NCBI RefSeq assembly: GCF_003790525.1
Contig: NZ_CP033635.1
Length of the DNA stretch: 64,000 nucleotides
From: Escherichia coli
GTDB taxonomy: Bacteria; Pseudomonadota; Gammaproteobacteria; Enterobacterales; Enterobacteriaceae
Direction: 5' to 3' (one strand)
This document shows, one piece after another, positions 46,040 to 47,950 of this stretch. Under the pieces are notes generated by a model. The model was not told where the DNA came from. It saw only the letters and a program-made list of their open reading frames with translations, and ran no database searches. Made by a program: the position numbers and the translations under genes. Each line of letters starts with the position of its first letter. Position 1 is the first letter of the stretch.

Positions 46040-46282
46040 AGCACAAAGAAGAAAAAAGATGTGTGCGAATGCCTGTAATGTGTTAAAAGAATGTTCCGCG
46101 TTTCCGGTACGCTTTTCGTAACTAACAATGCAGGGTGACGTAACGCTGGTTGTGCCGGAAACGCGTCCCTCCCCCTATCTTTCCTGTTTGGATTTGCCCC
46201 TATATTTCTGGATTATCCGACAAAACCGGCGTGAAGTATTACTCTCGTCGCCCAGCACCATAAGGATAACGCCCATAAAATC

Positions 46283-46648
46283 ATGAAACTTTTCTTCCAG
46301 ATTGGATACAATCAGGCCGTATCCCGTATTACAGGCTTATCACGTGTGACAGTCAGTCTCTGGGTGTGTTCAGGAACATTCCCTGAAATGTCAACCCGGC
46401 CTCCAGAGCGAGGACTTCTGGCCCCATGGAGGGAGTGGTTAAAAGAGCAACGAGAAAGTGGTAACTTCGGCGCGTGGCTGCAAGGATGGCAGCTGATGCT
46501 GCGGCTATATGTGAGGCAATCAGCAGTCGCTGGAATAATGGGGGTTGTCGAAAGTCATGTAAATAGACTAAAAATGCTGAAAGGCCAGATGTATGGTCGA
46601 GCCGGATTTGAACTACTCAGACAGAGGGTCATGAGTCCACTGGCATGA
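46283..46648 (+). CDS. AlpA-like DNA-binding protein (tentative)
   Basis: RITGLSRVTVSLW...FPE resembles AlpA-type HTH; the product is longer than typical. Confidence 0.3.
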   Translation: MKLFFQIGYNQAVSRITGLSRVTVSLWVCSGTFPEMSTRPPERGLLAPWREWLKEQRESGNFGAWLQGWQLMLRLYVRQSAVAGIMGVVESHVNRLKMLKGQMYGRAGFELLRQRVMSPLA

Positions 46649-46856
46649 AAATCTCCATCCAGGTTGCGTAAGAGCCACTTTTCATCCGTCGTCGATATCT
46701 GGGATAGCCATAGTGAAATAAAAAGCTGTCTGAATTAAATTATTTTGCACATATATTTTAATCCTGCACTGAATTAAGAATGGGTAATCAGTGACCGCTT
46801 GGACGGTCACTTTTAAGAGAAGGCATTAACAGAGAATGGTAAACAGGCTCAATATA

Positions 46857-47309
46857 TTATGTTGTTGGCACTACAGATGAATGATGGGATGATATTTTCC
46901 AATCCTTTCCATCCCACTCATAAGCGAAACTATAGCGTGCTGAAACTTGTTTTTTATCTTCAAAAGTAAACGTGTAATTCCCTGTATCAAGAGCCATATT
47001 GCATCCAATGCGAATAGTTCTGAAGTTTATTTCTCCAACAGGTTTTTTTTTCAAAAAATGCTCAAAATAGTCAACTCTTTCTGCATCTGTAATCCTAATT
47101 TTTTTTGATACTGTGGGCAGTAAGATCGCATCACTTAAATAGTTATCAGCAACCTTCTTGGCATCACCTGTTTTTAATGATTCATTCCAGCGATCGAATA
47201 ACCTTTCAATGTCTTTACTATCTACCCGAATACACTTAACATTATCTACGTCACTTGCCCACGACGCTCCAGAAAACAGACACAGAATTAAAATATTTAT
47301 TTTTTTCAT
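46857..47309 (-). CDS. secreted NTF2/SnoaL-like (DUF4440-type) protein
   Basis: 150 aa with signal peptide, AT-rich codon usage; fold call is tentative. Confidence 0.45.
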   Translation of the reverse strand: MKKINILILCLFSGASWASDVDNVKCIRVDSKDIERLFDRWNESLKTGDAKKVADNYLSDAILLPTVSKKIRITDAERVDYFEHFLKKKPVGEINFRTIRIGCNMALDTGNYTFTFEDKKQVSARYSFAYEWDGKDWKISSHHSSVVPTT

Positions 47310-47494
47310 AACTCCTCCTGATCAGCCTGAAACTTTTTTAAAGTTTAATCATATTAATACAGTGCAACTATTTGATAGTAAAAACGATGTTCTCTATTTT
47401 GTTAATAGATACTTCCTATTGTGTATATATTATGAGATTATTAAGAATAATACTCTCTGGGTCGTAGAGACAGGGTATAAGTCACAGGCTGGTG

Positions 47495-47950
47495 TGGTTC
47501 GGATGTTCTTGCCCCCTCAATATCAGACTGCTATTGTATCTTAAGTTAACGTTATCCGCTGACGTCGATATTCCCGTGGTGAGAGATAACCTAACGCACT
47601 ATGCGGATGGTTTTCATTGTAATGCTCGAACGCCTCTGCAAGGTTATGCAATGCCGTTATTACATTCAGTTTCGGCATGAACGCGATGTAGTCTTCATTC
47701 ACGTTTTCACGAACCTTTCTGCCATTCTATTGCTCTGAGGGCTACTGACTGCCGTCGTGCAGGGCTCCAGATTCAACTCTCTGGCGAATTGCCGTGTTTC
47801 ATGAGCCGTATAAGCCGAACCGTTATCCGTCCGCCACTGGATTGCTCGTTCCGGTCCTTTATCGCCAAAGCGTTTTTCTATCGCTCCTAACATCACATCC
47901 TGCACTGTCGGCTTTATCGTAACCTCCCGTACTGGTCACGGGCAGACTGT
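47495..47950 (-). mobile_element. IS2-like (IS3 family) 3' fragment
   Basis: Terminal sequences similar to IS2 ends and a transposase C-terminal fragment (47699-47905: [22 protein letters not shown]). Confidence 0.6.

Follow-up and report, generated by a model that had tools for sequence, protein, structure and literature searches.

A candidate iota-class carbonic anhydrase gene within insertion sequence debris of a decayed Escherichia coli genomic island

The stretch analysed in this work (the window) is a 64,000-nucleotide piece of an Escherichia coli chromosome, which contains the core genes pfkB to ynjA and a decayed genomic island starting at the tyrosine integrase gene at 29416 and continuing to the window end. 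The island carries PhoX, iha, pseudogenes of the integrative and conjugative element (ICE) families TIGR03756 and TIGR03757, and many insertion sequence (IS) pseudogenes. Its most fragmented part is the region described here, which is a scrap-heap junction in a degraded island and not a transposon; positions 46100-47600 are 100% identical to several complete genomes, e.g. that of strain Ch1. From left to right, the dead IS parts are a 20-bp end relic of IS2, a 3' remnant of an ISL3 element, an end relic of an IS1414-like element and a 3' remnant of an IS2-like element, the last two enclosing 652 bp of low-GC, foreign DNA with one intact, monocistronic gene. This open reading frame (ORF) of 150 codons, the only intact gene of the stretch, encodes a protein named in RefSeq 'SgcJ/EcaC family oxidoreductase' (WP_029400372.1). 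For the locus as a whole, we regard as likely a patchwork of IS debris harbouring the gene of an exported COG4875-type iota-class carbonic anhydrase (iota-CA), probably a periplasmic CO2 hydratase.

Profile searches with the 150-amino acid (aa) protein gave a match to Pfam CaMKII_AD (PF08332) with E 6e-13 over model positions 3-127 of 128, and a match to TIGR02246 'SgcJ/EcaC family oxidoreductase' at 42.8 bits (cutoff 33.95); SnoaL_3 and DUF4440 were further Pfam matches. Its sole close solved relative is PDB 3H51 from Xanthomonas campestris (E 1e-30). The AlphaFold2 model, built with 63 homologues, is an alpha+beta cone of the NTF2 superfamily (pLDDT 92.2, pTM 0.81), with low pLDDT at the N-terminus (1-20). 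Foldseek searches of the model returned chains A and B of 3H51 at the top (E 6e-16 and 2e-15, TM 0.77-0.83, 44% identity), followed by ketosteroid isomerases, SgcJ and other NTF2-like proteins at 10-19% identity. A reading made earlier from the letters of the window alone (the sequence-only reading) had described a 150-aa signal-peptide protein with NTF2/SnoaL-like composition, and this description holds: the ORF is intact, the N-terminus is signal-peptide-like and the fold is NTF2-like. The same reading saw no obvious role for the protein and named a match to a characterised family as the outcome that would speak against its proposal. The structure and sequence searches point to such a family, the iota-CAs, of which 3H51, the top Foldseek match, is treated as a Xanthomonas member under the name 'XcaCA' (PMC8425729).

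The family comprises 1904 cluster representatives at E<=1e-3, some with up to six tandem domains, and its members are frequent in Enterobacterales, Pseudomonas and Acinetobacter. Relative to its homologues the E. coli protein is full length. One of them, the Buttiauxella protein WP_183271195.1 (P0077; 65% identity, E 6e-74), appears in Table 1 of PMC8425729 as the iota-CA 'BspCA'. The family-alignment profile matches PDB 7C5X, the 'iota-carbonic anhydrase' of Bigelowiella, with E 2e-22 over the C-terminal half ending in HHSS. Many homologues (P0016-P0134) also have a weak precomputed match to Pfam PF27546 'MICAH', a recent family not contained in the Pfam release behind the profile searches.

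All published hallmarks of COG4875-type iota-CAs are kept in the protein: T66, Y81, F82, F85, H143, S145 and the motif S141-H142-H143-S144-S145. In domain 1 of the diatom enzyme tp-iota-CA, likewise of COG4875 type, the corresponding residues are Thr62, Tyr77, Phe78, Phe81, His139 and Ser141, the two Phe lying close to where CO2 is proposed to sit (PMC8395977), and the spacing in the two proteins is exactly the same (+15, +1, +4, +62, +2). In the Anabaena enzyme all2909, mutagenesis identified T106, Y124, H197 and S199 as essential for activity (PMC8132391). Equivalence to tp-iota-CA and all2909 was assigned by spacing and motif context, not by structural superposition. Across the alignment of the 63 homologues Y81, F82, F85, H142, H143 and S145 are invariant, and T66 and S144 are each present in 62; the SHHSS motif aligns with the HHSS of 7C5X. 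Judged by sequence, membership of the COG4875-type iota-CA family is well supported, and the protein is probably a periplasmic CO2 hydratase. We read the gene as that of a periplasmic iota-CA of this type because evidence from fold, family, residue set, homologues and export features converges.

By its database name the protein would be an SgcJ/EcaC-type oxidoreductase of secondary metabolism, a reading to which the RefSeq entry and the above-cutoff TIGR02246 score lend themselves. We consider it very improbable, since SgcJ itself (PDB 4OVM) is only 13-14% identical, no biosynthetic genes lie near the gene here or near its homologues, and the protein is predicted to be exported. Moreover, the papers defining the iota class note that proteins given this label had no known function and turned out to be carbonic anhydrases (PMC7191908, PMC8425729). 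'Oxidoreductase' is a legacy name here.

Among characterised relatives, a close one by description is BteCAiota of Burkholderia territorii, a dimeric enzyme of 162 aa with a 25-aa signal peptide, a kcat of 3x10^5 s-1 and the 'SgcJ/EcaC' annotation (PMC7191908). Shared with it are the single CaMKII-AD/COG4875 domain of about 150-160 aa, the signal peptide, the (H)HHSS motif and the database label, and BteCAiota was also modelled on 3H51; the two proteins are likened here by description and not by alignment, and activity has been measured for BteCAiota whereas the E. coli protein is a candidate. The protein 3H51 (annotated 'putative CaMKII association domain') has the same pocket residues and the same HHSS motif, but Xanthomonas-type sequences, 3H51 included, are without the C26/C103 cysteine pair discussed below. 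The same domain is found in tp-iota-CA/LCIP63 of Thalassiosira pseudonana and in other multi-domain algal iota-CAs, whose likely relatives P0135 and P0137 are about 41-43% identical per domain; these algal proteins go to the plastid and are built of two to six domains in tandem, whereas the single-domain E. coli protein is predicted to reside in the periplasm. The COG4337-type metal-free iota-CAs (all2909, PDB 7C5V; Bn86287, PDB 7C5X) have the same cone fold, the HHSS motif and the same Thr/Tyr/His/Ser logic, but they form another subfamily with an insertion, only the C-terminal halves align, and 7C5V is reached only at E 0.16. Finally, among Pfam families the best match is the association (hub) domain of animal CaMKII, whose fold is the same; unlike the hub, the E. 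coli protein has no kinase and no evidence of ring assembly, and its pocket holds the iota-CA residue set.

The fold alone would equally accommodate a non-catalytic periplasmic binder, either an immunity or inhibitor protein, as the sequence-only reading had suggested, or a carrier of a small carboxylate or hydrophobic ligand. NTF2-like folds have many functions, the Foldseek matches include steroid binders and ketosteroid isomerases, the CaMKII association domain was crystallised with acetate in its pocket (PDB 2W2C, per PMC8425729), tandem multi-domain relatives exist, and the iota-CAs with measured activity are not enterobacterial. However, every residue named as catalytic in iota-CAs or shown to be so by mutagenesis is conserved with identical spacing, and the multi-domain relatives resemble the diatom-type iota-CAs, whose domains are individually active (PMC8132391). 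A partner toxin or enzyme gene, for which the earlier reading proposed a search in related islands, was sought beside homologues in Enterobacter and Buttiauxella contigs (L009-L015); none is conserved, the neighbours are variable and the homologues are stand-alone genes. PADLOC defence models matched neither the 150-aa ORF nor the ORF once taken for an AlpA-like regulator. The immunity or inhibitor proposal is thus disfavoured, and a binder of any kind seems to us improbable. A further lead, the inflammation suppressor ShiA/SisA, was dropped because of how ShiA of SHI-2 is described, as a putative quinone reductase with a predicted location in the cytoplasm (PMC7545054), in contrast to the exported NTF2-like protein predicted here.

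Export is suggested by a predicted Sec signal peptide (Table 1) with a KK n-region, a mean Kyte-Doolittle value of 2.3 over residues 4-15, and small residues at -3 and -1; a simple signal-peptide heuristic is passed by 50 of the 63 homologues, and single-domain bacterial iota-CAs with such presequences have been described (PMC7191908, PMC8425729). The precursor would be exported by Sec and cleaved after Ala18. The cysteines C26 and C103 are both present in 47 of the 63 homologues and both absent in 13, C103 occurring alone in three, and this co-occurrence fits a periplasmic disulfide. The alignment suggests that a C26-C103 disulfide would be specific to one subgroup of the family, and in the periplasm it would probably stabilise the mature protein. 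By analogy with BteCAiota and 3H51, the mature protein, an NTF2/CaMKII-association-domain cone, would probably be a dimer. In its cavity, the hydroxyls of T66, Y81 and S145 together with H143 would activate water, CO2 would be held near F82 and F85, and the reaction catalysed would be CO2 + H2O <-> HCO3- + H+. The role proposed for such an enzyme is a faster equilibration of CO2 and bicarbonate, or pH buffering, in the periplasm.

Several points weigh against a periplasmic carbonic anhydrase that is made and active. NTF2-like proteins diverge widely in function, and in E. coli DNA of such low GC content is frequently silenced. The signal-peptide call rests on sequence features and the simple heuristic, not on a dedicated predictor. 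A simple scan of the gene's strand upstream of it called no sigma-70-like promoter. Because all E. coli copies are at least 99% identical, the intactness of the gene among pseudogenes is no evidence of selection. The motif is SHHSS here and HHHSS in the report on BteCAiota; the published '(H)HHSS' consensus does not require the first histidine, and serine takes its place in 30 of the 63 homologues. The only members with measured activity are BteCAiota, tp-iota-CA, all2909 and Bn86287 (PMC7191908, PMC8132391), none of them enterobacterial, and the activity of 3H51 itself is unconfirmed (PMC8132391). The metal dependence of COG4875-type enzymes is disputed.

Table 1. Features of the stretch described here, in window coordinates (CDS, coding sequence; ~, approximately)
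Position	Strand	Feature	Remark
45288..46319	+	Mosaic block: IS3-family transposase pseudogene, other IS3-family 3' sequence, IS2 relic, flank of a LysR-type gene	
46189..46208	-	Isolated 20 bp left over from the IS2 right inverted repeat	Outer tip 46189; the lost IS body would have run rightward
46283..46648	+	'AlpA-like' ORF, 121 aa, open by chance across ISL3 transposase remnant sequence and no gene	
46320..46695	+	3' remnant of an ISL3-family IS, including the right inverted repeat 46654-46695	
46698..46850	.	Block common to other E. coli islands, with IS1414-like (IS256-family) terminal relic 46788-46850	Relic tip 46850, toward the gene
46851..47502	-	652-bp low-GC segment: candidate iota-CA gene plus 193 bp upstream	Outer tips of both neighbouring IS relics face the segment
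46857..47309	-	CDS of the 150-aa COG4875-type iota-class carbonic anhydrase candidate	Stop codon 46857-46859; RefSeq WP_029400372.1
47256..47309	-	Codons of the predicted Sec signal peptide, residues 1-18 MKKINILILCLFSGASWA, then residues SD	From sequence features
47312..47319	-	Shine-Dalgarno sequence AGGAGGAG; its end is two bases upstream of the ATG	Read from the sequence
47503..47935	-	3' remnant of an IS2-group (IS3-family) element distinct from IS2	Right inverted repeat tip ~47503-47505; cut at 47935 against ICE-derived sequence

The surroundings of the gene are built of IS fragments, and the first and last of the four named above are of IS2 type. The left one, 46189-46208 (TGGATTTGCCCCTATATTTC), is identical over its whole length to the terminal 20 bp of IS2 (100%; K-12 IS2A 1312-1331, reverse orientation) and the identity ends after these 20 bp. 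None of 100 shuffles gave an equal match; this exact right end of IS2, seen by the sequence-only reading as an IS2-terminus-like sequence, is real. The IS2-like end with a transposase fragment that it reported on the right is likewise real: within 47503-47935 the frameshifted C-terminal fragments of OrfB (47541-47905) match NCBIfam 'IS2 transposase TnpB' with E 4e-24 and 2e-19, and RefSeq annotates the element as a frameshifted pseudogene without N-terminus. Positions 995-1278 of IS2 align to 47838-47556 with 74% DNA identity, on the minus strand like the 20-bp relic. Higher identity (89-91%) is found to the intact or near-intact copies L017 and L016, which place the start of the right inverted repeat of the IS2-like element as given in Table 1; the L017 copy has a programmed frameshift. 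The right terminal repeat reads TGTTCTTGCCCCC here and TGGATTTGCCCC in IS2. Both ends are of the right-end (IRR) type and lie in direct orientation, reading outside-to-inside from left to right. The two IS2-type sequences are therefore real but come from different elements (about 74% identical), forming direct repeats and no inverted pair, and neither element has a usable transposase, since 20 bp are left of the first and a 433-bp frameshifted fragment without N-terminus of the second.

A second partial IS2 right end is found within the island at 34299-34347 (88% over 49 bp, + orientation, ending at 34347), between a YebF-family gene and a cytochrome b562 gene. Strain E7-1N7 has an IS1414-like end relic (L017 1632-1691) some 310 bp away from the right end of its intact copy of the IS2-like element; the two IS types are neighbours there too, in the orientation opposite to that in the window.

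The 20-bp relic belongs to a larger mosaic block. Positions 45288-46319 are 99.2-99.3% identical over 1032 bp to a chromosomal (L018) and a plasmid (L019) locus, in both of which a LysR-type regulator gene comes next. The stretch 45860-46330 is covered to 80% or more in 222 genomes, and the gene of the 150-aa protein occurs in only about 50 of these. As part of this widespread block, the relic is older than the neighbouring gene and independent of it. At least three junctions separate the two: 46319/46320, about 46695-46698, and 46850/46851.

The second segment is ISL3-derived. Strain S51 carries an ISL3 element (L005) whose 3' part agrees with positions 46320-46695 at 97.7% identity and whose other end matches 46654-46695 in inverted orientation; relatives of the window remnant are common throughout E. 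coli. Running through it is the ORF 46283-46648, which the earlier reading took for a putative AlpA-type DNA-binding protein. Over residues 13-121 the ORF product shares 98% identity with the translated L005 ISL3 element, and the NCBIfam ISL3 transposase profile is matched with E 4e-9 over positions 275-368 of 370. RefSeq annotates here a frameshifted, N-terminally truncated transposase pseudogene. Pfam returned Phage_AlpA (PF05930) at E 0.61 and HTH_17 at E 0.31, over a helix-turn-helix (HTH)-like stretch of 24 residues. This short stretch (RITGLSRVTVSLWVCSGTFPE) resembles the AlpA motif of the AlpA/HTH_17 excisionase-type regulators but, unlike in those regulators, it is internal ISL3 transposase sequence. 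With no significant Pfam match, an identity as AlpA/Phage_AlpA regulator was rejected for the ORF. Consequently the two intact genes which had been seen as a unit reduce to one, the 150-aa gene. ISL3 elements occur in E. coli in two forms (L005 1964-3384 and L004 1006-2711), which differ by about 348 bp within the transposase gene. In the longer copy, L004, the corresponding sequence is in two reading frames with a stop; the shorter form, the type of the window remnant, joins the internal HTH-like segment in frame to the C-terminus, and this in-frame fusion yields the deceptive 'regulator' ORF.

The third segment, 46698-46850, is 89-92% identical to sequences in two other islands (L006 and L007), where different genes follow, and its last 63 bp (46788-46850) are 86% identical to the IS1414 end in L008. 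The 153-bp block lies at 3999-4151 in both L006 and L007, downstream of a sigma-factor-like HTH gene, and the cargo past the relic tip varies: here it is the candidate iota-CA gene, whereas L006 has a gene for a YaiO-family outer-membrane protein and L007 one for a c-type lysozyme inhibitor. This block looks like a recurrent rearrangement junction.

The segment with the gene has a GC content of 0.34 compared with about 0.48-0.50 in its neighbours. Of the AT-rich islet of the sequence-only reading, the part from about 46700 to 47500 (GC 0.31-0.36) stands, and the region of the 'AlpA' ORF (about 0.50) does not. The gene segment lies outside both adjacent IS relics and, as the tips of both relics point toward it, the layout is one left by insertions and by IS-mediated deletions trimming foreign DNA, not a transposon.

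In the earlier reading, the regulator and the secreted protein might be the cargo mobilised by a small transposon, composite or pseudo-composite, with the two IS2-like ends as its borders. The bracketing holds insofar as genuine IS2-family terminal sequences are present on both sides. They derive, however, from different elements, which are 74% identical and differ in their terminal repeats, and stand in the same orientation; the check for inverted ends gave two IRR-type ends in direct orientation, unlike a usable inverted pair, and they enclose no unit. There is no usable transposase, the left end lies in the block that 222 genomes carry, the ends are separated by three other junctions and two further IS relics, the 'regulator' is a transposase pseudogene, the gene stays joined to the same right-hand module in the genomes inspected, and no independent site of insertion is seen. 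With composite transposons of the Tn5/Tn9/Tn10 type the locus shares IS-derived sequence on both sides of the cargo; it differs from them in having different IS, no intact transposase, direct ends, no target-site duplications and no independent occurrences. Such a transposon can hardly be the explanation, and nothing suggests that the 1.3-kb stretch moves by itself. Overall, the sequence-only reading is partly supported: its sequence observations were largely real and its interpretation mostly wrong.

The CDS is present in 51 of 5426 complete E. coli genomes (about 1%), always on the chromosome and always at least 99% identical; no divergent second allele was found among the 5426 genomes. In the three other genomes examined in detail, the right side is the same in all three, consisting of the IS2-like relic, the ICE pseudogenes and iha, while the far left varies: PhoX lies there in Ch1, sodC together with dnd/dpt genes in EC6563, and genes of sugar utilisation in SMS-3-5. 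Outside E. coli, the DNA match is best with Enterobacter ludwigii plasmids (74.6% over 335 bp), and the best protein matches are at 70-71% identity; these searches pinned down no donor. Relatives were seen on 29 plasmids, from Enterobacter, Pantoea, Klebsiella, Salmonella and other hosts, none of them Escherichia. The gene came into E. coli by horizontal transfer from a Gram-negative donor and persists as a passenger of the iha-carrying island module.

A further possibility is that the gene is silent leftover DNA, intact only through recent arrival, unexpressed and inconsequential. The pseudogenes all around it, the near-identity of all copies, the AT-richness and the lack of a called promoter on its strand would fit, as would the IS1 or IS1414 insertions which in some strains lie in the gene or at its end, disrupting or altering it. 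Yet the Shine-Dalgarno sequence ahead of the ATG is strong, the ORF is intact in 50 of the 51 carrier genomes and full length compared with its homologues, and it might be transcribed by read-through from the IS2-like or ICE remnant that lies upstream on its strand. We give this explanation a small chance, and prefer that of an exported iota-CA which may be expressed. As to the end of the transcript, no intrinsic terminator was called for the gene by the terminator scan; a hairpin with a 9-bp stem (fold z-score -2.4) lies about 45 nt past the stop codon, inside the IS1414-like relic.

IS insertions lie in or close to the gene in some strains. In NRZ14408 (L008 2686-4000) the 3' end of the gene has taken up IS1414; the 9 bp duplicated at the target, TGTTGTTGG, correspond to 46860-46868 of the window, and a 157-aa variant (P0005) results. 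In SMS-3-5 (L020) the gene is cut to 74 aa by IS1, and in LH10-b-1 an IS1A is located within 46700-47480.

As to the island at large, the tyrosine recombinase gene (29416-30603) directly follows ynjA, with no tRNA gene at the boundary. Most island genes are pseudogenes, PhoX (42542-44521) and iha being intact exceptions.

An E. coli iota-CA that bears the SgcJ/EcaC label was stated in 2020 to exist, as an unpublished observation given without data (PMC7321114), and the later papers on E. coli carbonic anhydrases, as far as surveyed, deal with the beta and gamma classes only. The statement that E. coli has an iota-CA is true for only about 1% of complete genomes, in which the gene is an island-borne accessory. 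To our knowledge the other carbonic anhydrases of E. coli, i.e. the beta-class Can and CynT and the gamma-like proteins, are all cytoplasmic, so that the 150-aa enzyme would be the sole periplasmic carbonic anhydrase of the species. Many of the carrier strains are poultry-associated or extraintestinal isolates. That the gene, by giving this minority set of lineages a periplasmic carbonic anhydrase, is a real fitness or virulence-associated factor in host niches through periplasmic handling of pH or bicarbonate, with its constant linkage to the adhesin/siderophore-receptor module of iha due to co-selection rather than hitch-hiking, is a speculative extension which we think unlikely.

What looked like an IS-bracketed cargo unit is IS debris and not a mobile element. 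The intact gene within it adds a new, uncharacterised member to a known enzyme class, and the locus is otherwise an ordinary finding. The RefSeq name of WP_029400372.1 hides a likely carbonic anhydrase. If active and periplasmic, this enzyme would bear on carbonic anhydrases as bacterial drug targets and on the CO2/bicarbonate physiology of avian and extraintestinal strains of E. coli.

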